Assembly: GCA_046350855.1 (NCBI GenBank)
Contig: JAXLZM010000001.1
Location: 153,420 to 217,419 of the forward strand
From: Candidatus Anderseniibacteriota bacterium
Lineage (GTDB): Bacteria > Patescibacteriota > JAUYIX01
Reading direction: 5' to 3'
DNA: 64,000 bases
Positions 26,971 to 56,942 of this stretch are shown here, piece after piece. A program made the translations under genes and the position numbers. Numbering within the stretch: position 1 is the first letter of the stretch; each line of letters opens with the position of its first letter. Under the pieces are notes generated by a model. The model was given only the letters and a program-made list of their open reading frames with translations, did not search any database and was not told the origin of the DNA.

Positions 26971-27792
26971 ATGCCAGCTCGTTGGACTTTAGCTGAAGAA
27001 AAGAAACTGTATAGGGGGTTACATTTCTTATACGTCAAGAAAAATAAGACCATTGGTGAGATAGCGCATATCTTGAATTTAGATCCGACTTCCGTATATG
27101 ACCGTCTTGTGCGACTAAATATCCCGAGATCACGCGCGTCAAAAACAAGATACAATAATCAACGTACTGACGTCGGGATACCAACAACGTATTCACCCGA
27201 GCTTGCAGAATTTATCGGCATTCTCTTAGGAGATGGGCACCTAACATCAACTCAGGTCACCGTTACGTTGGGTAAAAAAGAAAAAAGATACGCAGAGTAT
27301 GTTGCAGACTTAATTAAATCGATATTTAGAATATACCCTGCGATAATTAAAAATCTGGATGGGGATCTGACCGTATACTTTGGATCAACAGCTGTGGTGA
27401 GGTGGTTTCTCGAAATGGGGTTGGTCCACAACAAAGTGCGCTCTCAGGTGGACGTACCGGCGTGGTGTTTTTCTAAGCGCACGTTCATTCGCTCGGTATT
27501 GCGCGGCTTGATTGATACCGATGGTTCGGTGTATACCTTACGTCACGGCGTACAAATATCATTCTGTAATCGATCGTACCCACTCCTAAAATCTGCGCGT
27601 TTGATGATGCAGCAATTAGGTTTAAGACCATCCAAGATTAGTTGTTACAAGGTATATCTGACACGTCAAAAAGATCTGGGCAACTATCTAAGACAGGTCG
27701 GGTTCAGTAACAGAAAACATTTGAAGCGTCTCCTCGTTTTTTCTCAGTTGCATGGGCAGGTACTGGAAGCGGCCAAACCGGACAGACTGTAA
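26971..27792 (+). mobile_element. Free-standing double-motif LAGLIDADG homing-endonuclease gene with N-terminal HTH
   Basis: Motifs LAEFIGILLGDGHL and LRGLIDTDGSV; HTH GEIAHILNLDPTSVYDRLVRL; ORF markedly AT-rich compared with its flanks; 3' end overlaps tRNA-Tyr. Confidence 0.8.
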
Positions 27793-27841
27793 ATCTGTTG
27801 GCTTCACGCCTTCGGGGGTTCGAATCCCTCCCTGCCCACCA
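27754..27841 (+). tRNA. tRNA-Tyr (anticodon GUA), long variable arm, CCA encoded
   Basis: Acceptor GGGCAGG/CCTGCCC; anticodon stem ACAGA/TCTGT with loop CUGUAAA; T-loop GGTTCGAATCC; 3' ACCA. Confidence 0.85.
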
Positions 27842-43359: not shown

Positions 43360-45162
43360 CTACATCTCGTGGGGCGCGTGGATCCCAAGCAAGGCCAAGC
43401 CGTTTTGGAGGACTTGGGCGGTGGCCTGACAGAGTGCTAGACGGGCTGTGCGCTGCTCCTCGGTCGCTTTAAGCACTGGCACCTTTTGATAAAACAGGTT
43501 GAACCGGCTGGCTAGTTCAAATAGTTCTGTGGCGAGCAAATGCGGCATACGACGCTGGGCCGCCTCGGCCACGACCTCGGGGTAGCGCACTAAGCGACGA
43601 GCGAGCAGTTGTTCGACAGGGTCATTGGTAACGGCGTCCTTTGCGGTAGCTGGGCCGGGCGGTTGGGCTGACTGCGCCTTACGCACAATACTCTTAATCC
43701 GGGCGTGGGTGTACTGGAGGTAGGGCGCAGAGTTACCCTCGAGCGAGAGCATCCGATCAAAATCAAAGTCGATGGTGTGCAAACGGTTCTGCGAGAGATC
43801 GTTATACTTAACCGCACCGATACCAACTTGGCGCGCGATTACGTCTTTGTTTTTGAGGGCAGGGTTTTTGCTGGCAATGACTTTTTGAGCGCGCTCGATT
43901 GCCTCTTCTAAAATTTCTAACATGTCTGCCACGCGGCCCGCGCGCGTGCTCATTTTTTTGCCCTGCATGCGATAGAGCCCATGACCAATGTGCTCAAGGC
44001 TGTTGGCCCACGTAAATCCGAGCAAATGCAACACCGTAAAGACTTGCCTAAAGTGGAGCTCTTGCTCTAGTCCAACCTCATAGAGCATGGCGCTAAACTG
44101 GTATTTTTTTTGACGAGCAATCGCGGCCGCTAACTCACGCGTGGCATAGAGACTGGCCTCGTCGGTTTTTTGTACAAGGAGTGGCGGTAATTTTTGTGAC
44201 TCAAGGTCAACGATCGTCGCACCTTGGCTCTTTTTGAGCAGACCTTTTTTAGCAAGTAGCTCCATAACCGTCTTGAGATCGCCACGGTACTGGGCTTCGC
44301 CCTCGTCGATACGATCAAAGGGCGTCTCGAGTAAAGCGTAGATTTTTTTGGCGTGCGCCAGCGAGACGTCTACAAAACGTTGCCACAAGCCCAGCGCTTC
44401 TCTGTCACCTTGTTCTAGTTTACGGAACCAAGCACGCGCTTCTTGGGCCAGGGAATCGTCTTTGGCGAGTTCATCATGAAATCTAACATAGACACGCATG
44501 AGTTCTGTAATAGGGCTCTTCTTGAGCGCTGTCTCGTCCCCCCACTTTTTAAATCCCGCGATCAATTTGCCAAACTGGGTGCCCCAGTCACCCAAATAAT
44601 TGAGGCGGACCGTTGTGTACCCGACCGCTTCAAGCAAGCTCGCGATGGCCGCACCGTTAACGGTCGAACGTAGATGCCCAATGCTAAAGGGCTTGCCAAT
44701 GTTGACGCCCGAGTACTCGACCACGATCGTTTGGTTTTTTGCCTTGCCTGTGGCATCGGTCAAAGGTCGTGTACCAAACTTGTCGCCGCGTTGGTTAATA
44801 TGGGCGACCAGATGAGTCAAAAAAGGTTGAGAGAGCGAGAAGTTAATAAACGGACCCGTAGCTTCGATCTTCTCAAAGAGCGCGACGGCTGTACCTTTGT
44901 AGCCGCAGGCATCGACCGACATCTTTTTTACGACAGCACGGATGACCGGGACTAGTTCTGCCGCAATGTCAGCGGGCTTTTTTTTGAGCTGCTTAGCCAA
45001 CATAAAGGCAACGGGACTGGCGTAATCAGCGTGGGCTTCGAGGGGGTGTTCAACCGGAATGGCCACAGGAGCAGGGCCCTCGCTCGCAAGCGGCGCTTTG
45101 TACTGCTTGAGCGCCTCATCGAGGATTTGGGCAATGGCTTGTTTGAGATCGATTTGTGCCAT
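43360..45162 (-). CDS. argS: Arginyl-tRNA synthetase
   Basis: Class I core and DALR anticodon-binding domain; 600 aa. Confidence 0.9.
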   Translation of the reverse strand: MAQIDLKQAIAQILDEALKQYKAPLASEGPAPVAIPVEHPLEAHADYASPVAFMLAKQLKKKPADIAAELVPVIRAVVKKMSVDACGYKGTAVALFEKIEATGPFINFSLSQPFLTHLVAHINQRGDKFGTRPLTDATGKAKNQTIVVEYSGVNIGKPFSIGHLRSTVNGAAIASLLEAVGYTTVRLNYLGDWGTQFGKLIAGFKKWGDETALKKSPITELMRVYVRFHDELAKDDSLAQEARAWFRKLEQGDREALGLWQRFVDVSLAHAKKIYALLETPFDRIDEGEAQYRGDLKTVMELLAKKGLLKKSQGATIVDLESQKLPPLLVQKTDEASLYATRELAAAIARQKKYQFSAMLYEVGLEQELHFRQVFTVLHLLGFTWANSLEHIGHGLYRMQGKKMSTRAGRVADMLEILEEAIERAQKVIASKNPALKNKDVIARQVGIGAVKYNDLSQNRLHTIDFDFDRMLSLEGNSAPYLQYTHARIKSIVRKAQSAQPPGPATAKDAVTNDPVEQLLARRLVRYPEVVAEAAQRRMPHLLATELFELASRFNLFYQKVPVLKATEEQRTARLALCQATAQVLQNGLALLGIHAPHEM

Positions 45163-45647
45163 ATACGGTACGTCCTATACTAGCCGACGGAACCCAAATG
45201 TCGATATACGCCACCAACAAACGCGCACGAGCGGACTATCAGCTGCACGATACCTTTGTAGCGGGCATTAAGTTGAGCGGAGCCGAGGTTAAGTCCGTCA
45301 AAAAAGGCGGCATGCGACTCCTGGGCGCCTACGTCACGCTCCACAACGGACAGGCCAGTTTGGTCAACGCGCACATCGCCGCCTACAAGCCCGCGGGTCC
45401 GCAACCTGACTATGACCCGACTCGCAGCCGTCCCCTCCTGCTCAAACGCTCGGAGCTGCGCACTATCGTCGGCCAGCTGAACCAAAAAGGATTGACCCTA
45501 GTGCCCTTGCGTGCTATAGGTGTGCGGAACTTGATCAAGATTGAGTTCGCGGTTGGGCGCGGCAAGCGTCAGTACGAAAAACGCGACGTCCTGCGTAAGC
45601 GCGAAGCGGATCGCACCATTAATCGGGCCCTACGACGACGCCGCTAA
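45156..45647 (+). CDS. smpB: SsrA-binding protein SmpB
   Basis: SmpB fold with C-terminal basic tail KREADRTINRALRRRR. Confidence 0.9.
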   Translation: MPYTVRPILADGTQMSIYATNKRARADYQLHDTFVAGIKLSGAEVKSVKKGGMRLLGAYVTLHNGQASLVNAHIAAYKPAGPQPDYDPTRSRPLLLKRSELRTIVGQLNQKGLTLVPLRAIGVRNLIKIEFAVGRGKRQYEKRDVLRKREADRTINRALRRRR

Positions 45648-45780: not shown

Positions 45781-46176
45781 GGGGATGATCGGCTTCGAGA
45801 GCGATCGTGTGTTGTTCGGGCGTGTACGAGTGGGATGTGCCACTCGCAAATCAATCGCATCACTCAACAAATGCTAAGTCATTTGTAAGCAAAGCGAGCG
45901 ACTACGTTCGTAGCCTCTCCGCTCTGCCAGCCGTTGCCTAACTGTAGGTAACAGCCATCTCCCGTAGGCTCCCCCGTGGTTTACGATCAGAGGTGTTATC
46001 TTTGCGGGGTTGGTGTACAGCAGGTTTCTGGCTGAACATCGAGACTTTGTGAAACTCGCGTCGCCATTTTTTGCCGCACTTTGAGCGGTGACGTCAGATA
46101 CCAAGCGCGGAGAGTACACGTGGACGACCAACATGCTGTTAGCTCCACGCGGGTTCGATTCCCGCCATCTCCACCC
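45781..46176 (+). ncRNA. ssrA: tmRNA (SsrA), standard one-piece form
   Basis: 5' GGGGAUGAUCGGCUUCGAGAGCGAU matches the tmRNA 5' consensus. 3' ACGCGGGUUCGAUUCCCGCCAUCUCCACC is a tRNA-like T-arm and acceptor. A G3:U70 pair is present. Putative tag ORF ends ...ALPAVA-UAA near 45945. Confidence 0.85.
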
Positions 46177-46446
46177 CAATCTGACTTTTCCGACTATCCG
46201 ATAAGTTTTCTCGTACTCCGTTGGCGGCCCGCAGGGCCGCCAACGGTTTACGTTTGGGCGGAAAAATATCGGAACGTCGTATCCTGGTGCATCTCTACCG
46301 TACCGCTCGAACGTATTTTCTCAAAATCGTTTGAGGCCGGTGATAGCGAGAACGTAGTCAGATCCGCGGCGCGGCAGGACTGGGGGTCAAGGGGGAAGGA
46401 CTGCCGCGCCGCGGATCGGTTGCAATTTAGGTACTTTTCATAAAGT

Positions 46447-46842
46447 ATGTTCGAGCAGCGCAGTAAATGCGCACCAAGTTTAATCGCTTACAACAACAAG
46501 ATAATGTTGCACCAAATGAAGTTGCGTCCTGGCCCGTTCAAAAAAATTGTCGGAGGTCAGAAAATTATAGAGTCAAGGTTATTCGATGAAAAACGTCAAA
46601 AAATCAGGGTTGGTGATAAAATTGAATTTACATCCAATGATAACTCGGATAAAAAAGTTACTACAAAAGTAGTCGCGCTCTTTTTGTTCAAGTCTTTTGA
46701 TGATCTTTTTTCTGAATTAGATCCTCAACTGTTCGGAGGTTCATCAAAAGATGCATTACTCAATGAAATAGAACAATTCTATTCTCCGGCTGAACAAGAA
46801 AAATACGGCGTTGTTGGTATAAAAATACAAGTTGATAAATAG
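46447..46842 (+). CDS. Stand-alone ASCH (PUA-like) domain protein; strongly AT-rich gene
   Basis: ASCH-like core KLRPGPFKKIVGGQKIIESRLFDEKR...GDKIEF; GC far below flanking DNA; alternative start at 46504. Confidence 0.65.
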   Translation: MFEQRSKCAPSLIAYNNKIMLHQMKLRPGPFKKIVGGQKIIESRLFDEKRQKIRVGDKIEFTSNDNSDKKVTTKVVALFLFKSFDDLFSELDPQLFGGSSKDALLNEIEQFYSPAEQEKYGVVGIKIQVDK

Positions 46843-46845
46843 AAA

Positions 46846-46876
46846 AAGCCCAACCGGATTACCAGCTGGGCTTGAA
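46846..46876 (-). terminator. Hairpin terminator between convergent genes
   Basis: AAGCCCA/TGGGCTT stem followed on the minus strand by TTTTTC. Confidence 0.45.
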
Positions 46877-46878
46877 GA

Positions 46879-48228
46879 CTATTGGCTAAGGCCAAATTCG
46901 AGCACAACAACCCCGAGCTTCTCCTTTGTTTGGGGATAAATCTGTTTGAGCAGAGAAAGAACATCCTGTTGAGAACGTGCGTCTGGCACAATACGCTCCC
47001 AGGGCTCTACGATGAGCATCTCTTCGAAAGTTGGGTAACGTCGAATATCAGTGACCTTCACAAAAAAGTTACTCGTGTGGGTCACAAGTTGAATACGTTC
47101 TCCAACCTGAATTCGGTTGATCGTATCGTAACCAACTCGGACCTCAAGGTTCTTCTTACCTGAACGAATCAAATTAAAGAACCTTTCCTTAACTCGCATG
47201 TTTCTCATGGTGGTTTCTCCAATATCCATGCTCCACTGTTGGGTAATGACCTGCGGATGATAGGCTGCGGGCATTGCCGCATCCAACCTCCAGCCCAGAC
47301 GTTGCAATGAAGCCACTTCTTCAACAGTAGGGTTAATGTGAATGTACAACTTGTGACCGTAGGGCACCAGCTGATGGGGTACGTCGATGAGCAAGGCCTC
47401 GAACACCATGATGTTGGTAGCAATAAAAGGCATAACTTTGATAGGACTGCCCTTCTTTGGAGTAGCACCGGCAACACCAGTCACGTTTCCGTCACTGTCG
47501 CTAGCAACAAATATGAGCTTGTACTTGGTGTTGATGTCGAAGCTCTCGCGCCGACTATAGCCGTCGAACAGGGCTTGAACCCACTCGGTCGTGATGCCTT
47601 CGAATGAGCCCTGCAGCTTTTGAAGCAGTAGTTTACTAACCTGTCCCTTCACTAACTCGTTCGTTTCGTCTAGTGCCAAGACGGAGACATGAGGGCGGTC
47701 CAAGGACAGTAGCTCGTTGAGTCCATAGAGCGGCTTGTAAAGCATTGTCTCCGTAATACCGCTCTTGTAATGACTTTCGGATCTTCCTGCCCGAATAAAG
47801 GCCTTGCGAAGGAAAAACTGCAGAGCTGCAACATTCTGTTCCGCGACAGTGCAGTAAAGCTGTCGGGCTTCATGCTGCCTTGCATATTCTTCCGCATGCT
47901 CCAGCAATCTGCTACCGACACCGAGCTTACCCTGAAATTCTTGTGCAACAATTAGGGGACTGATCTTATACGTAGACTGCCTCTTCCCTACAACATGGAT
48001 CATGCCCGCAGCTTTTTCTCCAACCTCCGCAATGAACATTCTCTGTTCAAAAGAAAAAAAGCCAAGATGGTCCGTGCCACCTGTTATATGGGCCTGAAAG
48101 ATGCGTTTTGCATGAGCTCTATGGTCACCTCCATAATATGGTTCGAGTGCGTTTTGCATCAATTTTTCAACCCACTCAAAATCTCCAGTACGTGCTTCCC
48201 GAATTATGATGCCTTCGTTGCCAGCCAT
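46879..48228 (-). CDS. GNAT acetyltransferase(x2)-ASCH fusion protein
   Basis: Strong RBS AAGGAGA before the Met at 48228 (ORF track starts at 48282). GNAT motif A QGKLGVGSRLLEHAE; second GNAT-like middle domain; C-terminal ASCH-like domain (FFNLIRSGKKNLEVRVGYDTINRIQVGERIQL). Confidence 0.7.
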   Translation of the reverse strand: MAGNEGIIIREARTGDFEWVEKLMQNALEPYYGGDHRAHAKRIFQAHITGGTDHLGFFSFEQRMFIAEVGEKAAGMIHVVGKRQSTYKISPLIVAQEFQGKLGVGSRLLEHAEEYARQHEARQLYCTVAEQNVAALQFFLRKAFIRAGRSESHYKSGITETMLYKPLYGLNELLSLDRPHVSVLALDETNELVKGQVSKLLLQKLQGSFEGITTEWVQALFDGYSRRESFDINTKYKLIFVASDSDGNVTGVAGATPKKGSPIKVMPFIATNIMVFEALLIDVPHQLVPYGHKLYIHINPTVEEVASLQRLGWRLDAAMPAAYHPQVITQQWSMDIGETTMRNMRVKERFFNLIRSGKKNLEVRVGYDTINRIQVGERIQLVTHTSNFFVKVTDIRRYPTFEEMLIVEPWERIVPDARSQQDVLSLLKQIYPQTKEKLGVVVLEFGLSQ

Positions 48229-48528
48229 CTTGATCTCCTTGCTGAACCACTGCCGCAAGTGAATGCGGCATGCGTAGTCCAAGGTGTTTGTTGTTAACGA
48301 ACCATCCCATCACACACGTTCCAAGCCGTTTCTGGAACGTTCCTCTATAACATTCTTGGAACTCGACGTCAATCAAGGTGCAGCTATTAAAAAACTAGTC
48401 CGATCCTCAGATCTCCCCTGCTAAAGGGTTTTCTTTTGTACAGTTGTGTTCTGCCAAAGAGCCTGTAATACTAGTCGACTAGGCATCTTGGAGTGCACCT
48501 TGTCATCGATCGTTTACGGAGGTGAAAC

Positions 48529-49032
48529 ATGAAACGCATACGTGGATTTGTCTGCGGGGTGACGCGGACGGATGAGCAACACATCCTCTACGGCCCGCAC
48601 CGCGACAATCCTCAAACCTACCAGGCCCTGGAGTGCAACGGGCTACGCGCCTACCGTGAAGAATTCCAGGCCCTCAAGACCTGTCACGACGCCTTTTTAA
48701 ACCCTAACCCGTTTGGCCATATCAAGTGCTCGCGGCTTGGGTATCTCGACCTCTGTTTGGCAGAGACCGAGGAGGACCTAGCAAGCTTTAAGCACCAGTG
48801 CTACTTGGTCGCAGTCATGTTTCCGGTTCCGCTTGGTGCTGACCCCGGGCAGTATGAACTCTTTGGACCACCCAGGGTAAACGGCGGCGGATTTGAGGGA
48901 CGCCAGAGTTGTCGGGAAAACGGCTGGCAAACCTTTGAGTCCTTTGTGGTGGCCAACCACATCCGCACTGAGCTCATCCGCCAGACCTGCTGTCCAACGA
49001 CACTGGCCATCCTTAAGTTACATTTTCGCTGA
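48529..49032 (+). CDS. Hypothetical Cys-containing protein
   Basis: GGAGGTG RBS; 167 aa; no recognised motif. Confidence 0.55.
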   Translation: MKRIRGFVCGVTRTDEQHILYGPHRDNPQTYQALECNGLRAYREEFQALKTCHDAFLNPNPFGHIKCSRLGYLDLCLAETEEDLASFKHQCYLVAVMFPVPLGADPGQYELFGPPRVNGGGFEGRQSCRENGWQTFESFVVANHIRTELIRQTCCPTTLAILKLHFR

Positions 49033-49034
49033 CC

Positions 49035-49066
49035 CCTTGGTTCTACCTAGGGGTCCTTTTGTTACC
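49035..49066 (+). terminator. Intrinsic terminator
   Basis: GACCCCT/AGGGGTC stem followed by CTTTTGTT. Confidence 0.55.
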
Positions 49067-49071
49067 ACTTT

Positions 49072-50439
49072 ATGAGGGTCAGGGCCTGTGGTAGTCTCTT
49101 GCTACCTATGCGCACTACTTCCCGTAAGCAGGCTTCTCGTGCAGGTAGCACCATCGCCCTGGTCCTCTCGGCTATCGCCCTGACGGCCTCACTATGTATG
49201 GTTCAGACTAATGCGGTGACGGCGCTGGGGGTGATCCAGTTTGGACACGGTTGGTACAAGGCGGGGGGTCAAACGGGTGCGGATGTGATCGGGGGTGACA
49301 TCGGCGACGAGTCGATCCCCGACGTGGCGCTACGACCCAATGGACAACCCTGCGCAGCTTTTATGAGTGCGAGTGGCTCCGGCGCCGCAGATATTTTGGT
49401 CGGGTGCTTTAACGGCTCGATTTGGACGGGACCGGATAACGGCAATGGCTATAGCAACATTAGCAACTCCCCCTTTGCTAGTGAGAACCCCGACATCGCC
49501 ATCGCCCCAGATGGTACGCTCTATGTGGCTTGGCTGGAGAGCACTAAAGCAGGCCCAATTCCCGATCGAGAGGTTCGGTTGGTCTTTTTTGACGGAACGA
49601 ACTGGAGCGGTTTTACCGGTCCCTATGACGTCGTGAGTCAAGGCTTAAGCGCCGGTACCTCAATAACTTTGGCGATAAACCCAATCGATGGTCATCCGGC
49701 CGTGGCCTGGAACTCAAAATATCAAGAGAGCGTGCTGTACCGGGAGTGGAACGGTCTCACCTGGAAAGGCCGAACCGGCAGCTACGACAAGATCAACGGT
49801 ACCCAGGATAAAACGGTTAACGCGCTAGAGCTCTCGCTCGCCATGGGCAGCAACCAGGCGCCGAGCGTGCTCTGGACCAACTACGATGGTGGCGGCTACG
49901 GCGAGATTCTGTTTCGCCGTTGGGATGGCAGCAAGTGGCGCGGCTACGTCTCGACTAACTCCGATAACTTGAGTTTGACGCCGCTTAAGAGCGAACATCA
50001 AGCACGCTTAGCACTCTTTAACGACGGCCGACCTGCGGTCACCTGGGAGGATGCCACGGTCAATGAGCAGGTGCGCTATCTCGAGTGGAGTGGCGCGATG
50101 TGGCGCGGACATGGGGGTGCCACGGCGGACACGGTACAGAGTGGCAGTAATGGCGCCTCGCCGACACTGGCAATCAACCCGGTAACCAATGCCCCCGTGA
50201 TTAGCTATCTGTTTTTTAGCGGGAGTGCTAACCAGATGTACGTTACCCAGTGGAACGGCGGCTGGGTTGGGCTAGCCAGCACACCACAAACGCAAGTCGA
50301 TCTTAAGGACGCCTCGCTCAACAACGCCCACTACCAGCAAGCCGCCCTGGATGCCACCGGCCACGTGCACCTGGTCTGGTACTACACTCAGCAAATCCCG
50401 GTGGCGAGTCTCAACGTGGCTTACACGCGTTGGAAATAG
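49072..50439 (+). CDS. Secreted protein with six repeats of about 52 aa carrying [FW]-[ND]-G-x-x-W-x-G (putative 6-bladed beta-propeller)
   Basis: Signal peptide from the Met at 49108 (MRTTSRKQASRAGSTIALVLSAIALTASLCMVQTNA). Repeats CFNGSIWTG, FFDGTNWSG, EWNGLTWKG, RWDGSKWRG, EWSGAMWRG, QWNGGWVG. Confidence 0.65.
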   Translation: MRVRACGSLLLPMRTTSRKQASRAGSTIALVLSAIALTASLCMVQTNAVTALGVIQFGHGWYKAGGQTGADVIGGDIGDESIPDVALRPNGQPCAAFMSASGSGAADILVGCFNGSIWTGPDNGNGYSNISNSPFASENPDIAIAPDGTLYVAWLESTKAGPIPDREVRLVFFDGTNWSGFTGPYDVVSQGLSAGTSITLAINPIDGHPAVAWNSKYQESVLYREWNGLTWKGRTGSYDKINGTQDKTVNALELSLAMGSNQAPSVLWTNYDGGGYGEILFRRWDGSKWRGYVSTNSDNLSLTPLKSEHQARLALFNDGRPAVTWEDATVNEQVRYLEWSGAMWRGHGGATADTVQSGSNGASPTLAINPVTNAPVISYLFFSGSANQMYVTQWNGGWVGLASTPQTQVDLKDASLNNAHYQQAALDATGHVHLVWYYTQQIPVASLNVAYTRWK

Positions 50440-50458
50440 TGCGCGAGAGCGTTCGTCT

Positions 50459-51259
50459 TTAGGGGAGCGGTTCACCCAAAGTAACCCGGGCCTGGTAGGC
50501 GTTTTTGAGTTCGTCCCCGTAAAAGACTTGGTAGCCTTTGCGTTTGTAGCCCAACACTGTAATTGGAGCAAAGGGTTTACAACCGGAGGGAGTTGGTCCG
50601 GAGCAGACTTGCTGGTCGTTTTCGGCTAACAGCGCCGCCCAGCGAATCACGATCGGATCAGTGCTTGCATCACAGGTCGAGTTGTCGAGGGTCGCAAAAA
50701 TTTGCCAGGGCATTCCGGCGCTAACCTTGACCGAGTTGCAGGTCTGGTCACCCTGTGTGACGGTAACCTCACTCGGACCTTGCCAGGAGACGCCCAAGTC
50801 GATCGTGCGATACCAGCGCTCGACCGCCGGGGTCGGTTTGAGGATCACTCGACCATAAATTTTTTCTAAAAAGCGCACCGGGCCAGTGGGATCGTCCGCG
50901 TTGTAGACCGCCCGGGCCGAGACTTCTTTACTGCCGCTCAAAACAGCTTGTTCTTCTGCACTAAACGGGATGGTTTTAACTTGGCACATCCCAAACGGAT
51001 CGCACACCACCATCTGATCCATGCCTAAGCCCGGTGAGAGTTTTTGGATGGTGACCGCATCCGGCTGAACATAGTTTTGTTTAATCAGCATGTCGCTGGA
51101 CTGGGTAGTGACCGGGTTAGTTTGCGAGGCGTTGGAGGACGTTGTAGCACCAGAGCTAACGATTGTACCGGTCTGCGCTCGCCGAGAGAGCCAAAAGCCG
51201 AGTGCGCCTACAATGATCGCGACTCCGACTACAGAGAGCACTAGCCAAAGCTTTTTCAT
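50459..51259 (-). CDS. Membrane-anchored secreted protein, paralog B of the tandem pair
   Basis: Starts at MKKLWLVLSVVGVAIIV (the ORF-track upstream extension to 51562 is unlikely). Shares ERWY, VCDxxGxCQV and GYQV motifs with 51337..52188. Confidence 0.6.
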   Translation of the reverse strand: MKKLWLVLSVVGVAIIVGALGFWLSRRAQTGTIVSSGATTSSNASQTNPVTTQSSDMLIKQNYVQPDAVTIQKLSPGLGMDQMVVCDPFGMCQVKTIPFSAEEQAVLSGSKEVSARAVYNADDPTGPVRFLEKIYGRVILKPTPAVERWYRTIDLGVSWQGPSEVTVTQGDQTCNSVKVSAGMPWQIFATLDNSTCDASTDPIVIRWAALLAENDQQVCSGPTPSGCKPFAPITVLGYKRKGYQVFYGDELKNAYQARVTLGEPLP

Positions 51260-51288
51260 GGAAGTGTGCTCATGATAGCGAAAGTCGT

Positions 51289-51330
51289 CCCAAAAGAAAA
51301 AAGACCGTTCCCCTCCAGAGAAACGGTCTT
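51289..51330 (-). terminator. Strong intrinsic terminator between the tandem paralogs
   Basis: 9-bp stem AAGACCGTT/AACGGTCTT followed on the minus strand by TTTTTTCTTTT. Confidence 0.7.
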
Positions 51331-51336
51331 GTTGTA

Positions 51337-52188
51337 CTACGGCACGGGCGTGCAAAGCGGAACTTTGGTGCTGAGGAGCGATTCTCCCTGCATCACCTGA
51401 TAACCGCTCCGCTCTTCGTGCAAGATGAGCATTGGCGCAGTCGGACCAAGCGTAGCGCTCACGAGACCCGGGGTTCCATCCTGTGCGCTCGTGGTGCACT
51501 CGTTGTCGATGAGTGTCACCGCAAAACGCGAGGTGTAAAAAGCACCCGGGATCGGATCGCACGTGGTGTGATCCAACGTCATCCCCGCCTGCATTGAGAT
51601 CGTGTCATCGACTTGATCATAGATGCACTTTTTGGGCAGGGTGAAGAGTTCTCTGGGTGAGTCCCACGAGTGGCCACCGAGAGCAGTGTTGTACCAACGC
51701 TCCATGGTATCCACTTCTTGACTCAAAACCCTAAAGTACCCCTTGGTCCACATCTGGGCACCAGCCGGAGTATCGATCCAGACTAGCCTAACGGAGTACT
51801 TGGGCGCACCCTGTTGCCCCGTAGCAATAGCAGATTCGGTCGCGTCGTAGGGGCAGTAGACCACCTGGCAACTGCCTAGGTCATCACAGACGAGCATCTG
51901 TTCTCCCGTCAAAAAAACGACGGGCTGCGTCTGGGTAGCCCAGGCTGGCTCGGTCGGTCCGCCGACGTGTACGGTCGCGTACGTCTCACCATCTGAGACG
52001 ACCCGCAGGTTAGCGAGTAGATCGGAGGAGTGCCGATAGACGACACTCTCGCGACCCGTCGGTTTACCGGGGCCGTTGTCCGCAGCTGGGTCGAAGTTGA
52101 ACTCGACCCAGGAGAAGTCGGCCGCCTGCGAGCGACCGAGGCATGTACATGCACAGAGGACGCCGATCAAGACGGCTTGCTTCTTCAT
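51337..52188 (-). CDS. Secreted protein, paralog A of the tandem pair
   Basis: GGGGAGG RBS; signal peptide MKKQAVLIGVLCACTCLGRSQA; motifs shared with paralog B. Confidence 0.65.
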   Translation of the reverse strand: MKKQAVLIGVLCACTCLGRSQAADFSWVEFNFDPAADNGPGKPTGRESVVYRHSSDLLANLRVVSDGETYATVHVGGPTEPAWATQTQPVVFLTGEQMLVCDDLGSCQVVYCPYDATESAIATGQQGAPKYSVRLVWIDTPAGAQMWTKGYFRVLSQEVDTMERWYNTALGGHSWDSPRELFTLPKKCIYDQVDDTISMQAGMTLDHTTCDPIPGAFYTSRFAVTLIDNECTTSAQDGTPGLVSATLGPTAPMLILHEERSGYQVMQGESLLSTKVPLCTPVP

Positions 52189-52298
52189 GAAAGGAACCTC
52201 CCCTAAAAGGATGGCCCGTTTGTACCAGATTTTTTATTACCTGTCAAGTCGGCCAGCACACGTACTTGGCACAAATCCGTTATGTCAGCGTGAATAGT

Positions 52299-54416
52299 TT
52301 ACCCGCGAAAACTAAAGAGGTTGAGGAGGTGCTCACGGAGACTTTGCCGACCGCTGCCGCTCGAGGCAGGGCTGCGGGTCTCGGTTTGCGGAGTGGCTTG
52401 GCCCGTACTTGAGTCGACCACGAGCCAGTCAAAGACCACATCCTCGCTTGGAGCGTTGAGGAGTTCGACCGTAAAGCCATGCGTGGATACACTTGTGACT
52501 TTGTAGGTAGCAAAACTATGCGGAGTGAGTAGGACGTGCGGCGCACTGGCGTAGTTGCTGCTAAAGGTTACACTCGCCTTGGTCTGACCTTTTTTAACCG
52601 TGACGCTGCCGGCCGTGTCGCGCCCGACCGTAAGATGCCCGTTAATGGTCATGGCCCCCGCTACACGCGCATCGCCATCGACTACCAAGCTACCGGCCTG
52701 GATCTGACCTGAGACCTCGAGCGTGTTGGTGCTGATATGGTCGGCAAGTTCTTTGGTAAATGCTTTGAGCTCGGCCTGGTTACTCGCGGCAGAACCACTC
52801 TCCAAACTCAGACCGGGCAGCTCTTCCCCTTGGGTAACTCCGATTTGGCCAGCCTTATCGACGACGAGCGCGCCGCGCTGCGGCTGGAGTAAGACCATAA
52901 CGGTCTGATCAGCGTCAGAGCCCGCTCCGGAGGCCGAGAGGGCGATTCCGATCACGTTGTCAGCCGCCGCAGCGCGGCGCGCCTGACCAGCTTTGCTGGA
53001 TGGACCCACATAGTCCCCCACCTTGACCGGGCCGTTCTCGTCACTAAAGCGCACCGGAACTTGTCCGACTAAAGCTACCAAGGCGTCGTGCACGGTCTGA
53101 TCGGCAGGGTCGTTTTGGTTGGGGTTGTTACCGATAAAGGCCGGATTAGTCGAGACTACGCCGATCGCCAGATCCTCGGGTGCGCTGGACTTGCGCACAG
53201 CGTGTTCGGCCGAAGTATCCAACGTCACCAGGTCGCCTGGCAGGAGATCTGATTCGCTGGTGGTCATGTACTCAGCAAAGTCAGCGCCGGCCCCTGAGTA
53301 GGCTGCGTCCGCAAAGGTGCCACCCGTCGAGCTCACGCGCCAGACCCCGTTGTCGGTGCCATCCACGTCGGTGTTAAAAGCCATAAAGTTAAAGGTGTCG
53401 ACCGTCTCAGAGTTGGTGTTGATCTGCAGCAAGGCCGAGCGCTCACCACCGATCGTGAGCGGCTGCGTCAACGAGTTGTTGGTGGCATAAATGCGCATCG
53501 GACCGCCCGTTTGGTAGCTCGTGTCATTGTCCGCAAACTGCACATCGATGGCATGGTGGGCCGCGCCGGTGCCGCTGTCATCGATAACCAGCGAATTAGC
53601 GTTACCGTTTTGATCGATTGAGAGGGCCTCAGCGTCGGAGCTATTGACCACCACATTGATCGCACTAAAGTCGCCGTTTTGCGTAACAGAGATTGCGCTG
53701 GTATCGCGGTTGTTAAGGACCCGCACACCGTTGCCCAAGGTAGGGCCCGCGCTCAAATTGATATCGATACCGCTGCCGGAGGAACCCGTATGGTCAACAT
53801 CGATCGCATTGCCCTCGTCAGTTTGATCGATCTCGATACCGTTGGCCTCGAGGGCCTGGTTGACCTGTAGAGCAGGACCGGGGTCGGTTACTACGGTTGA
53901 TTTAGAAATCACCACGGACGGCAGCAAGTTGGCGCTGTTATTAAATGTAGTTACGCCATCGTCGCCAAAGGTAGCAAAGGTTGCGCCGCTATTTTGCAGC
54001 ACAAAATCGTTGGTACTGGTCAGATCAAACACCAGACCACCCTGGCCCTGTGCGTTGTCGATCGTCACCCGGGCTGGTGTCACAAAATTGTTGTAGGTGT
54101 CGTCCATATCGATGGTCGAGACGTCGCCGTCCGCACCCTGCGGTCCGGTTGGCCCGATCGGACCCGTCGGTCCAGCCGGTCCTGTCGCTCCCGTCGTACC
54201 AGAAGCACCAGCCGCTCCGGTGGCACCCGTCCCACCCGCTGTTCCAGCCGCACCCGTTGTGCCTGTTGCTCCCGTTCCTCCCGTCGAACCCGTCCCACCC
54301 GTGGTTCCACCAGTAGTACCACCGGTCGTACCGGTCCCACTTTGAGGTGCACAGATGTAGGTCTTACCGTCCGGTCCGGTCAACACGGTCCCCGGTTGTA
54401 CAAAATCCTTACCCAA
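52299..54416 (-). CDS. Collagen-like (Gly-X-Y) repeat fiber protein with phage tail-fiber/appendage-like C-terminal region
   Basis: TTG start; about 75 residues of G-T-G/G-A-T/G-P-T triplets; Ser/Thr/Asn/Gly-rich beta-helix-like body; ADFAEYM...PGDLV segment resembling the Peptidase_G2 IMC autoproteolysis motif (identified from memory). Confidence 0.7.
54115..54350. repeat. Low-complexity 9-bp-periodic GC-rich DNA encoding the collagen-like triplets
   Basis: Repetitive GGT CCn GTC / GGn ACn GGn codon runs; generates spurious ORFs on several frames. Confidence 0.7.
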
Positions 54417-54783
54417 ATAGGCCGAGATGTCCCCGACCTGCGAGAGTTTGAGTGCTTGATCCTCCAGAGCGTCGCGTAAACCTTGTTCACTGGCGTACGC
54501 AATTGGTAGTTATCGTACGCCGCACGCGCCAAAGAGCGCTAACAAGAGCAACCTAGGCCGATAAAAAGATGCATGCGGCGAGAGCAGTGCTCGTGCCGAT
54601 CCTGCCAGGCCGAGAGGGTTTTCGCTGACGAGCTCGGTAGTCTCCCCAGGCTGACCAACTGGAATGTTTTGTCCAGTCGGACGGGTCAGGGGTGGACGGC
54701 CGGGTGAGACGGGCGAACCAGGGATCGGAACGTCGCTAGCTGAGCTCGAGGGGAAGGGTTGGTCGGGCATAGAGAAGTTCTAC

Positions 54784-55797
54784 CTAGTATAGCGCAGCTG
54801 GATTATGCTGCCCATCCGCAGCCTGGCCGGGCTGCATGCCAATGGGACGGGTCACGGTGCCAAAGCGCTGCCGGATCACAAAGGGGTTGCCGCGATAGGG
54901 TTGGTAGCTCGAGCGGTCGGCAAACAGCCTAAAGGTGTTGCTGCCTACGATAAAGCTGTACTGGCCCCGTCGATCGGTGACGGCCGTCTCTAAAACACGG
55001 TTGAACTTAGTATCCAAAATGCGCACGACGGAATGCGGCAAGGGTTCGTTGGTGAGGGTGTCGGAGACGTTCCCCCAGGGACGACCGTAGGGTTTGTAGG
55101 TCAAGCGCTCAAAAAGGACAAAGAGTAGTAGGTGTCCTGCGAGCAGGGCCCAGGATTGCCAGTTCCAGGCAAAGACCGTGCAAATAGCACCCACGATGAT
55201 GCCAGTGTAGGCCAAGACTGAATGGAGGGTGCGCCGAGACTCACGACGCAAGGCTTGCTTGAGGGTGACGCGATCCTCCGGCCCGTCGATCGGTAGGTTG
55301 GCCTCGAGTGGACCTTTGGCGGCGTGCGCTACCACCCCTCCCGTGTAAATCGGTCCCACCGTAGTGTCGAACTTTTCGCCGGCAAGTAGGCGCGTCGGAA
55401 ACTCAAAGCCCGGTTTACTCACAAAAAAGCGGTAACGCCCCGCCGGCAAGAGAGCCAAAAAGCGCCCCTCTGCATCCGTGACGCGGGTGGCGACGATACG
55501 TTGGCGGTCGGCATCGATAATCCGTACGAGTGCGAGATCAATGGGACGCTTGCTCAAGCTCTCAAAAACTTGCCCGTAGCCCTTGCGTCGCCGACGCAGC
55601 AACAGCAATCCAGGCTGCGTAAAAATCTGCTGGAACAGCCGGCCGAGACTGGCCAACGGTACCGCGACAGCCAGGTTGACCGCAGCGACAAAGAGAGCAA
55701 GTGGGTTGAGTACATAGGTAAATAACCAGCCCAACGCAACCGCCGGGATCTCCGGCAAAATCGTGGTGGGACTGAGGAGGTGACAGACGGCGTTCAT
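54784..55797 (-). CDS. Membrane protein with two carboxypeptidase-regulatory-like (CarboxypepD_reg) beta-sandwich domains
   Basis: VRIIDADRQRIVATRVTDAEGRFLALLPAGRYRFFVSKPGF and VRILDTKFNRVLETAVTDRRGQYSFIV modules separated by TM helices. Confidence 0.55.
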   Translation of the reverse strand: MNAVCHLLSPTTILPEIPAVALGWLFTYVLNPLALFVAAVNLAVAVPLASLGRLFQQIFTQPGLLLLRRRRKGYGQVFESLSKRPIDLALVRIIDADRQRIVATRVTDAEGRFLALLPAGRYRFFVSKPGFEFPTRLLAGEKFDTTVGPIYTGGVVAHAAKGPLEANLPIDGPEDRVTLKQALRRESRRTLHSVLAYTGIIVGAICTVFAWNWQSWALLAGHLLLFVLFERLTYKPYGRPWGNVSDTLTNEPLPHSVVRILDTKFNRVLETAVTDRRGQYSFIVGSNTFRLFADRSSYQPYRGNPFVIRQRFGTVTRPIGMQPGQAADGQHNPAALY

Positions 55798-55917
55798 GAG
55801 AGAATGATTTCTATGCCTATTAAAAGCAAAAGCAGTATAAGAGCAATGAGCAGACCAGATCGCTCGCCACGCTTTGAGCGACACATTCCACCGCAACACA
55901 GCACTGGGTCACAGGTC

Positions 55918-56490
55918 TCAACCGACATGGCCGTTTTTTAGAGCGATTTGTGTGATTTTGCCGAGGTGTGCGACACGACGCACTGCCAGTGCGGAGACGA
56001 GCACTCCAATAAAAAAGACGAGGACGCCTGTCACTGCTAAATAAAAAGCGCCATTAATTGGGACCTGGGTTGCTAAACCACCCTGTTCAACCAGCCAAGT
56101 ACGGCCGGTCTCGACAATCAGTAGCGCAATAGCAAACCAAAGGCTGATCATTGCAAAAGCAGTAAGGTACCCCAGTCGGATCAAGTGGACGTGCGAAAAA
56201 AACGGCCGGAGTAGAAAATGAATCAGCATGATGGTAAAGGCACCGCCAAGACTGTAGACCAACCGACCGTAGAGATCGATCACTGGGAGGCTGGGTAAAA
56301 CCGTGTAGCTGACCGTGCGCAGACTGGGATAGTAATGCGGTAGGGCAACTCCTGCTTGTTGGATTAAAATATAGAGGACCGGTGCGGCGGTCACAAAAAC
56401 CGCAATCGAAGAGGTAAAGAGTGAACCTCGGTAGCTCTGTTTTTTGGTCAATTTGCTGGGCAAAGGCGGTGGAACAGGATGGTTACTCAT
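55918..56490 (-). CDS. Integral membrane protein
   Basis: Multi-TM ORF; internal start MSNHP avoids overlap. Confidence 0.45.
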   Translation of the reverse strand: MSNHPVPPPLPSKLTKKQSYRGSLFTSSIAVFVTAAPVLYILIQQAGVALPHYYPSLRTVSYTVLPSLPVIDLYGRLVYSLGGAFTIMLIHFLLRPFFSHVHLIRLGYLTAFAMISLWFAIALLIVETGRTWLVEQGGLATQVPINGAFYLAVTGVLVFFIGVLVSALAVRRVAHLGKITQIALKNGHVG

Positions 56491-56942
56491 GCGCGGCGTG
56501 CCTCCAAGATAAATGAAATCCCCATCGTGATAAACGTGCAAAAAGCGAGAGTGACAAAGAGCGCAGCAAAGAGCTGTCGTCGCCAGGTGGAGGCGTGACG
56601 AAGATGCCCAAAGACGATCAAAACCAAAAGGGGCAAAGCGATACAGATGCCAAGGGCGGTCAGGTGCTCCTTAAAGGCAAATAAGGCGGCACTACTTGGT
56701 GTTTTTTCGAGCGTACTCCGCAAAAACACACTAAAATGGGGGTACAAAAGGGTTCCAAAACCAAAGCTGGCTAGGTATAAAAGCGTCGCCGCAAAGCCGG
56801 CGAGCTGAATGTGTTTCCAATTGTGTGCTGAGACCGCCAGTAAAAAGATCAACCCCATCACAAAGGCAACAAACATACCGAGCGCTGCAATGCCGTGCAG
56901 GGTTCCCGCAAGATCGTACCAGCCATCCGCAAAAGGAATCAT
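56487..56942 (-). CDS. His-containing integral membrane protein
   Basis: ATGA start/stop overlap with the upstream gene; four TM helices with conserved His. Confidence 0.5.
   Translation of the reverse strand: MIPFADGWYDLAGTLHGIAALGMFVAFVMGLIFLLAVSAHNWKHIQLAGFAATLLYLASFGFGTLLYPHFSVFLRSTLEKTPSSAALFAFKEHLTALGICIALPLLVLIVFGHLRHASTWRRQLFAALFVTLAFCTFITMGISFILEARRA

Follow-up and report, generated by a model that had tools for sequence, protein, structure and literature searches.

A variable slot behind ssrA in a candidate phyla radiation genome and its probably acquired GNAT-ASCH cassette

In a 64,000-nucleotide stretch of the genome of a Candidatus Anderseniibacteriota bacterium (hereinafter the window), the gene for transfer-messenger RNA (tmRNA), ssrA, is followed by a variable slot of 4.3 kb (46176-50458) that precedes conserved genes and harbours a cassette of two convergent genes (46504-48305), one for a fusion of two GNAT domains with an ASCH domain and one for a small standalone ASCH protein. 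The cassette is a fixed two-gene unit found in varied genomic contexts; it is likely to have been acquired horizontally and to be the only clearly foreign part of the slot. The region as a whole is best read, with moderate confidence, as a decayed integration hotspot at ssrA with a mosaic cargo. The original prediction had placed an island 3' of ssrA, and a synteny comparison bears out a variable, partly foreign region without an integrase there, although neither the extent nor the composition that had been assigned to it holds.

Boundaries of the slot

The limits of the slot follow from comparison with three relatives recovered by SmpB-based scans: an 868-kb metagenome contig (L039; SmpB 82% and ArgRS 70% identical, the latter being the figure for the closest relative), a contig of a metagenome-assembled genome (MAG) with an SmpB 82% identical (L001), and a Parcubacteria MAG with an SmpB 73% identical (L002). 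In the window, the genes for ArgRS and IleRS precede smpB (45156-45647; Pfam SmpB, E 1e-41), which lies upstream of ssrA, and the smpB-ssrA pair named in the original prediction is recovered by ARAGORN, Rfam and Pfam. The nucleotide homology (blastn) with L001, L002 and L039 spans ileS, argS, smpB and ssrA and ends exactly at base 46175 in all three. The window and the three relatives share ...GGTTCGATTCCCGCCATCTCCACC, and the next base is the point of divergence.

Past ssrA, L039 carries a low-GC gene for a protein of 154 amino acids (aa), a gene for a fusion protein with orotidine-monophosphate decarboxylase (pyrF), and pyrD. L001 has a 411-aa protein with multiple helix-turn-helix (HTH) domains (sigma-70 region 4 and the excisionase-type HTH_17) and a 112-aa open reading frame (ORF), and in L002 small ORFs with ~45% GC follow one another, some of them encoding paralogous zinc-ribbon-like peptides. 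When the pyr genes of L039 and the slot proteins of L001 and L039 were searched against the window by tblastn, nothing was found. Thus, the variable region starts at the 3' end of the tmRNA gene; the genes of 46176-50458 are absent from the locus in the relatives, in contrast to those of 50459-54800.

The conserved genes that begin at 50459 encode the paralogous proteins of 266 and 283 aa, a 705-aa protein with a collagen-like G-X-Y stretch, a CarboxypepD_reg protein (54784-55899) and a membrane protein. In L039, these genes recur with unchanged order and orientation, starting with one homologue of the 266/283-aa genes and continuing with those for the collagen-like, CarboxypepD_reg and membrane proteins (protein identities of 33%, 45.5%, 66% and 45%, as listed). 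L001 retains, on the far side of its insert, the 3' end of a homologue of the gene for the 266-aa protein (window 50459-51259), and its contig stops there. Because this fibre operon is conserved in two of the relatives, it belongs to the backbone and not to an island, and the slot can be delimited as 46176-50458 with high confidence. The collagen-like fibre operon of the original prediction is accordingly real but, being collinear in L039, has to be taken out of the island.

The two fibre paralogues (50459-52188, minus strand), which are encoded downstream of the collagen-like gene, are 33% identical to each other, and L039 possesses a single counterpart (274 aa). These proteins and the collagen-like protein show 33-45% identity to L039, compared with 66-82% for the products of neighbouring genes, which suggests that the fibre and collagen-like genes encode rapidly evolving surface proteins.

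The GNAT-ASCH cassette and the rest of the slot

The small ASCH protein matches the phage protein family phrog_19935 (E 3e-22), and the solved structures nearest to it are those of the Pyrococcus ASCH proteins 2Z0T and 1S04 (E 5e-9 and 2e-8, respectively). The ASCH proteins 2Z0T, 1S04 and 1XNE of the PDB match the ASCH of the cassette, and the two scores for PF04266 (ASCH), 29 and 33 bits, exceed the curated threshold of 21.2. The octapeptide GxKxxExR (the 'GKER' motif), GQKIIESR in the small ASCH protein, is conserved in all nine partner genes. The standalone AT-rich ASCH gene was thus correctly recognised in the original prediction but its start was not: translation most likely begins at M20 (46504) rather than at 46447, given that the homology begins at 46510 and given the alignment of the nine genes.

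The convergent gene encodes the fusion. Pfam, an AlphaFold2 (AF2) model and Foldseek agree with the original prediction on two GNAT folds plus ASCH, although cassette DNA homology moves the start from the TTG at 48282 to the ATG at 48228. PF00583 matches the protein with E 3e-13. In the AF2 model (pLDDT, the predicted local distance difference test score, 89.7), GNAT folds occupy residues 1-177 and 182-335 and the ASCH domain residues 338-449; the top Foldseek match is the tandem GNAT protein 2WPW, and many single GNATs match with TM(target) of 0.7-0.86. In an alignment of 43 sequences, both GNAT regions hold many invariant residues, and so does the ASCH motif, GKKNLEVR, in which K359, E362 and R364 are invariant.

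The fusion has >900 homologues, the best 120 of which are full-length and 63-78% identical to it. The hosts named among these 120 are Wildermuth-, Jackson-, Morani- and Pacebacteria, Paceibacterota and the "Parcubacteria group", so that the family appears, by the available source names, to be confined to bacteria of the candidate phyla radiation (CPR). The identity of up to 78% exceeds that of ArgRS to the closest relative (70%) and that of SmpB to other Parcubacteria (~46%). The convergent pair was found in each of the nine distinct neighbourhoods examined, the window included: in the eight further loci, a gene of ~447 aa is followed by a convergent ASCH gene of 107-113 aa at a distance of 36-66 nt, and in all nine loci a hairpin comparable to the terminator shared by the two genes in the window is present in this gap. 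Between the window and six distant CPR loci, DNA homology (65-69%) is confined to 46510-48304, which defines a unit of 1.8 kb as well as both start codons. The pairwise identities of the GNAT and ASCH genes are uncorrelated over 36 pairs of loci (r = 0.09), within a range too narrow to be informative.

The 75-80 nt upstream of the start of the GNAT gene are conserved in all nine loci, and the blastn homology of the cassette stops at 48300-48304, within the end of this leader. The leader contains a hairpin (48242-48282, minus strand) of two helices that ends just before the Shine-Dalgarno sequence. RNAalifold yields 16 pairs, and compensatory changes are seen in 12 of these. In the leader alignment, 87.5% of the cells are paired, compared with 69% in shuffled alignments (0 of 500) and 26-49% when the pairing partners are slid by 1-3 columns. 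A covariance model of the leader matches only upstream of the GNAT gene in 338 kb of related sequence, and a search of Rfam returned no matching family. Judging from these patterns of covariation, the leader is a candidate for a new cis-regulatory RNA.

Atypical base composition, which the original prediction assigned to the whole island, is limited to the cassette. The mean GC content of the window is ~55%; in 500-nt segments it dips only at ~46250-48500, with a minimum of 0.388 at 46500-46999, recovers to 0.51-0.57 by 48250-48999 and is 0.55-0.61, at or above the window mean, across 48.5-55.5 kb. The GC content at third codon positions (GC3) was scored for 52 ORFs in the window (mean 0.62, standard deviation 0.079). 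The ORF of the small ASCH gene is the most extreme of the 52 (GC3 0.33, z = -3.6; for the coding sequence 46504-46842, GC is 0.345 and GC3 0.29), and that of the GNAT fusion is mildly low (GC3 0.53, z = -1.2). The genes for the 167-aa, 455-aa, collagen-like and CarboxypepD_reg proteins are host-typical, with z between +0.3 and +0.6. For the 266-aa fibre paralogue, which entered the scoring as a 367-aa ORF, z is -0.45, and the 207-aa membrane gene lies somewhat below the mean (z -1.3); the 283-aa paralogue was left out of the scoring. The GC and GC3 profile therefore bears out a deviation from the host at ~46.45-48.3 kb but not at 48.5-54.8 kb, and the compositional break that had been placed right at the tmRNA 3' end is not there, this position being occupied by a GC-rich spacer (46176-46446).

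The two genes of the cassette differ in what their composition implies. In all nine genomes, with host GC of 0.35-0.55, the small ASCH gene has a GC content 5-20 points lower than that of the GNAT gene with which it converges, and across the window and L095-L112 the GC3 of the small ASCH gene ranges down to 0.13. By this comparison of composition, AT-richness is a trait of the gene family in every host examined and gives weak evidence of foreign origin or of a donor. The GC content of the GNAT gene is 3-11 points above that of the host in seven of the eight other hosts and equal to it in L112; in the genome of the window it is 7 points below, the only case of this kind among the nine, which suggests that the gene came from a donor with 40-47% GC and is incompletely ameliorated.

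The neighbourhoods of the cassette are diverse. It is located near rpsO and pnp in L095 and between rml genes and tRNA-Glu/murE, 118 nt 3' of tRNA-Glu, in L105. The genes scpB and scpA are adjacent as a rule; in L112 (7212-10563) the cassette splits scpB from scpA, with no recombinase nearby, and this locus provides direct evidence for insertion of the pair as one unit. Large serine recombinases are encoded within 8 kb of the cassette in three of the nine neighbourhoods, accompanied by ParB genes, a ParB-methyltransferase fusion and an insertion sequence transposase (L099), by a DUF4365-HEAT gene (L101/L102), or by a restriction-modification gene and Fic, PLD and GIY-YIG genes (L103); in L101 and L103, the recombinase gene lies immediately beside a tRNA gene. 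Mobility genes are absent nearby in the other five (L095, L105, L108, L110 and L112). Scans for attachment (att) repeats around L101, L103 and L105 gave nothing convincing. In searches with the GNAT fusion, IMG/VR gave no matches and INPHARED matched only the ASCH part, in Streptomyces phages.

The other features of the slot are host-like (Table 1). The 167-aa protein, described originally as an orphan, corresponds to a real ORF with no Pfam match. The 443-aa protein, whose gene forms the right edge of the slot and is host-typical in composition, fits the secreted W-x-G repeat protein of the original prediction: the 443/455-aa sequence has a hydrophobic N-terminus and about six W-x-G motifs with a period of ~55 aa. 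It has four homologues only; the gene for the best one (45% identity) belongs to a different Andersenbacteria MAG, where its neighbours are unrelated. The two genes look like lineage-restricted accessory genes rather than recent imports.

The spacer of ~270 nt past the tmRNA gene (46176-46446) is GC-rich and strongly structured (RNA fold z = -5.9), and no Rfam family matches it. The terminator that follows ssrA has a 13-bp stem with 11 G-C pairs and a T-rich tail. Between this terminator and the cassette lies a palindrome of ~190 nt, with outer arms of 42 nt that are 71% complementary and an inner stem (46361-46417) with perfect 17-bp pairing; 30 of 32 nt of its left arm are identical, in the opposite orientation, to L001 4927-4958. 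With two copies known, the palindrome could be an element similar to a miniature inverted-repeat transposable element (MITE) or a recombination scar. An ORF at 46081-46443 was dismissed as a gene because it overlaps the tmRNA gene and the hairpin spacer.

Two further observations concern this part of the window and another. The ssrA gene of the window terminates in ...TCCACC followed by C, so that the terminal CCA is incompletely encoded, as compared with ...TCCACCA in the three relatives (46170-46178), and the divergence from the relatives falls exactly at the base where CCA is incomplete. A second low-GC patch is an ORF at 26971-27792 (plus strand; GC 0.437, GC3 z = -2.2) that encodes a LAGLIDADG_3 homing-endonuclease domain (E 4e-12) and overlaps with its 3' end the gene for tRNA-Tyr (27754-27841).

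Table 1. Features in and around the slot; coordinates are those of the window, except for the last row, which refers to L005.
Feature	Position	Strand	Evidence or remark
tmRNA (ssrA)	45781-46175	+	ARAGORN; Rfam RF00023, 89.4 bits; left slot boundary
Intrinsic-terminator-like hairpin after ssrA	46218-46246	+	terminator scan, inverted repeat I7, fold
Nested palindromic spacer element	46285-46476	.	repeat scans; DNA fold z = -6.1
Small standalone ASCH protein, 112 aa	46504-46842	+	Pfam ASCH E 2e-6; phrog_19935; PDB matches
Hairpin terminator common to both convergent genes	46846-46873	.	terminator scan
Tandem-GNAT + ASCH fusion, 449 aa	46879-48228	-	Pfam, AF2, Foldseek, 43-sequence alignment
Conserved 5' leader of the GNAT fusion mRNA	48229-48305	-	right end of cassette homology
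167-aa protein	48529-49032	+	slot cargo, host-typical composition
443-aa W-x-G repeat protein, predicted exported	49108-50439	+	gene call from independent Logan contig
Conserved backbone, outside the island	50459-56541	-	L039 collinearity, blastn blocks
Intact-looking ssrA-integrated island in L005	2209-10564		recombinase + 13-nt direct repeat

Possible entry at ssrA and competing readings

As a site of insertion, ssrA is a well-known hotspot, and the idea of an island at this gene is known biology. Work by Williams of 2002-2003 is said to have described ssrA as attB for the islands and prophages that are integrated in tRNA and tmRNA genes. For the locus studied here, a parallel is provided by a Parcubacteria MAG with an SmpB 46% identical to that of the window (L005), in which the gene for a 535-aa large serine recombinase (domains Resolvase, Recombinase and Zn_ribbon_recom) overlaps the 3' end of the tmRNA gene. 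The 13-nt core CCCGCCATCTCCA, which in the window is present in a single copy within ssrA (46161-46173), recurs in L005 exactly once, 7.96 kb downstream, at a point where the GC content changes from ~0.31 to 0.52; by our own estimate, the chance of an exact 13-mer match within ~9 kb is ~1e-4. In another genome (L004), genes for a HepT toxin and a Fic protein are located past the tmRNA gene. Given the island in L005 and the presence of the same 13-mer in ssrA of the window, a decayed integration hotspot is a reasonable reading, and the role of the ssrA 3' end as a hotspot, stated in the original prediction, gains support from the end of homology at 46175 and from the recombinase and repeat at the same core in L005.

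Under this reading, the slot would be a mosaic of at least three pieces, namely the spacer (46176-46503), the acquired cassette (46504-48305) and the two host-like genes for the 167- and 443-aa proteins. The cassette would have entered as cargo of an integrative element with a large serine recombinase targeting the conserved core of the ssrA 3' end, and the recombinase and the distal att copy would have been lost afterwards. By analogy with L005, entry of the cassette through such an element may be proposed, tentatively. The locus resembles known ssrA-integrated islands in that variable, partly foreign DNA starts at the exact 3' end of ssrA, the cargo differs among relatives, and L005 has a recombinase next to ssrA together with a direct repeat of the 3' core. 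It differs from them in that the window contains neither an integrase nor an attR repeat nor an island-wide compositional signature, only a 4.3-kb mosaic, and in that the enzyme of L005 is a large serine recombinase, the usual enzyme being a tyrosine integrase.

Several results weigh against the reading of a decayed hotspot with an acquired cassette. With respect to the route of entry, no recombinase, integrase or transposase domains were detected by Pfam in 46-57 kb, and a tblastn search of the window with six recombinases and transposases had a best E value of 0.09, so there are no remnants (with ParB as the query, the sole match was a chromosomal parB-like gene at ~16 kb). Searches for a further copy of the ssrA 3' end were negative as well, with a 24-mer at up to 3 mismatches, with 10-mer seeds on both strands and with the 13-mer core, and scans for repeats at 45.7-60 kb and 46.18-48.56 kb gave short matches at chance level at the edges of the cassette, for example, 13 nt with 11 of 13 identical. 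Both absences had been noted in the original prediction and stand. Furthermore, the recombinase of L005 is only 20-25% identical to the recombinases linked to the cassette, which makes the connection of this recombinase type with the cassette an indirect one; no ssrA island with the cassette inside and its recombinase still in place was encountered, and the comparison involves three close relatives only, one of which (L002) stops short of the far side of the slot. With respect to acquisition, the nucleotide identity of 65-69% with saturated synonymous sites means that the protein identity may reflect constraint and not recent transfer, and the AT-richness of the small ASCH gene, as a family trait, adds little.

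The first alternative, exchange of the slot by homologous recombination in its conserved flanks (ssrA and the fibre operon), with no site-specific integration, we regard as unlikely. In its favour, att repeats and an integrase are lacking, both flanks are conserved among relatives, the cargo is a mosaic with two genes of host-like composition, and the 30/32-nt element shared with the L001 slot, in another place and orientation, suggests shuffling within the lineage. However, the divergence of four genomes at the last CCA base of the tmRNA gene fits a site-specific crossover in the ssrA core better than a random end point of recombination, L005 has a recombinase island at the ssrA core, and the flanks, at 65-75% DNA identity, are low for this process, although closer strains may exist.

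The second alternative dispenses with horizontal transfer: the slot would be ancestral, shaped by differential loss and rearrangement, with the ASCH pair a vertically inherited, constrained housekeeping module of CPR bacteria. The saturation of synonymous sites between cassette copies and the AT-richness of the small ASCH gene in all nine hosts are in keeping with this scenario, as are the lack of mobility genes or an att site in the window, their lack in five of the nine neighbourhoods, and the general fluidity of gene order in CPR genomes. We nevertheless consider it improbable, because the neighbourhood differs in every genome, with scpB and scpA split in one, serine recombinases occur within 8 kb in three of the nine, and none of the three closest relatives has the cassette in its slot; moreover, no match exceeds 78% identity even though relatives with 82% SmpB identity are present in the databases, and only in the genome of the window is GC3 of the GNAT gene below the host value.

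A chimeric junction of ssrA and cassette, joined from different CPR populations during assembly or binning, is very improbable: the source is a MAG, the independent Logan contig, which starts only at 46447, does not reach across this junction, and palindromic regions can break or mis-join assemblies, but the spacer 46176-46446 has host-like GC and the 30/32-nt element in common with L001, and from the right junction of the cassette to the fibre operon the sequence is continuous in both the NCBI and the Logan contigs. Hardly more credible is the single degraded island of atypical composition at 46180-54800 (8.6 kb, given originally as ~8.5 kb), fibre operon included, inserted at ssrA: although all the genes lie between ssrA and further housekeeping genes, and surface-fibre genes, here with 33-45% identity to L039 as against 66-82% for their neighbours, are often strain-variable, everything from 50459 to 56541 is conserved, with the fibre, CarboxypepD_reg and membrane genes collinear in L039 and a 266-aa homologue in L001, and the fibre genes are host-typical in GC3, GC being 0.55-0.61 over 48.5-55.5 kb. 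A decayed hotspot with a 4.3-kb slot and mosaic cargo thus remains the preferred reading.

Possible function and known systems

Recent work on ASCH proteins gives a lead on what the cassette might do. In Escherichia coli, YqfB is an N4-acetylcytidine (ac4C) amidohydrolase (PMC6972931). In a preprint, 19 of 19 ASCH proteins assayed removed ac4C from tRNA, with the Lys and Glu of the motif being essential, and the ac4C amidohydrolases described include TthASCH of Thermus thermophilus, human EOLA1 and TRIP4 (bioRxiv 10.64898/2026.02.27.708502, 2026 preprint). Given that ASCH proteins are newly reported as erasers of ac4C, the cassette is a testable candidate system. The GNAT part would N-acylate cytosine or a cytidine-like moiety, either within RNA or as part of a nucleoside, the ASCH domains would reverse the acylation, yielding a pair of writer and eraser or of toxin and antidote, and the leader hairpin would set the expression of the writer. 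Such a writer/eraser function, predicted from domains and motifs, is the favoured one, though still doubtful. A more specific version, in which the cassette would be a self-contained module mobile among CPR bacteria whose GNAT-ASCH protein writes N4-acyl-cytidine in tRNA or other RNA (or poisons the pool of nucleotides or aminoacyl-tRNA), whose small ASCH protein erases the mark and whose leader hairpin, as a new cis-regulatory RNA, balances the two, seems to us unlikely. If true, it would comprise the first acyl-cytidine writer on a GNAT-ASCH scaffold and a new logic of the toxin-antidote or addiction type, which would explain the spread of the cassette without a recombinase of its own. Two results speak against these functions: convergent transcription is atypical of toxin-antitoxin pairs, and PADLOC-DB 2.0 gave only a marginal match to PDC-M11A (E 7e-4, over 67 residues of a GNAT domain), with no PADLOC match for the small ASCH, 167-aa and 443-aa proteins.

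In comparative genomics, GNAT-EVE fusions nearly always have an ASCH gene beside them, and a role in toxin-antitoxin or conflict systems was predicted for them (Bell, Wolf & Koonin 2020, PMC7641849); as cited in that paper, a prediction for (PIN)-GNAT-EVE + ASCH was also made by Iyer et al. 2013. The cassette resembles these systems in the combination of a GNAT enzyme carrying a C-terminal PUA-like domain that binds modified bases with a separate small ASCH gene adjoining it, and both are experimentally uncharacterised. The predicted systems are often situated close to restriction-modification or defence genes or on mobile elements; of the nine neighbourhoods of the cassette, three have serine recombinases nearby, one of them with a restriction-modification gene as well, and the others are of the housekeeping type. 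The cassette differs in the fusion of ASCH and not EVE, in the presence of two GNAT folds, in the lack of a PIN or AAA_17 partner, in the convergent arrangement of genes that in (PIN)-GNAT-EVE + ASCH form one operon, in the conserved structured leader, and in its restriction to CPR by source names. It is thus a variant of a computationally predicted, uncharacterised class, and the variant itself is new. In comparison with the ASCH ac4C amidohydrolases, the size of ~110 aa, the ASCH fold and the GxKxxExR motif with the catalytic Lys and Glu are all preserved; unlike these enzymes, the ASCH of the cassette is both paired with and fused to an acyltransferase, and its activity is a prediction from sequence.

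DarT/DarG is a toxin-antidote pair based on a reversible modification, and TacT and AtaT are GNAT toxins. The cassette shares with them the format of a two-gene unit that is mobile without a linked recombinase, and the combination of a group transfer with, possibly, an enzyme that removes the group. It differs in the lack of any sequence relationship, in a partner that is not a DNA-binding antitoxin, in the convergence of the genes and in the hypothetical status of its toxicity. Type II toxin-antitoxin modules of the TacT/AtaT kind have a small, co-transcribed, DNA-binding antitoxin; the partner in the cassette is a convergent ASCH gene with a shared terminator.

The plasticity linked to ssrA thus extends to the reduced genomes of CPR bacteria, where, in L005, the enzyme involved is a large serine recombinase. 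The cassette itself is an uncharacterised, strongly conserved acyltransferase/ASCH pair with a structured leader of its own that is very widespread in CPR. A mobile acyltransferase accompanied by two ASCH domains is a concrete candidate for a system of reversible RNA acylation or of the toxin-antidote kind, and this candidate occurs in organisms that depend on scavenging nucleotides from their hosts.

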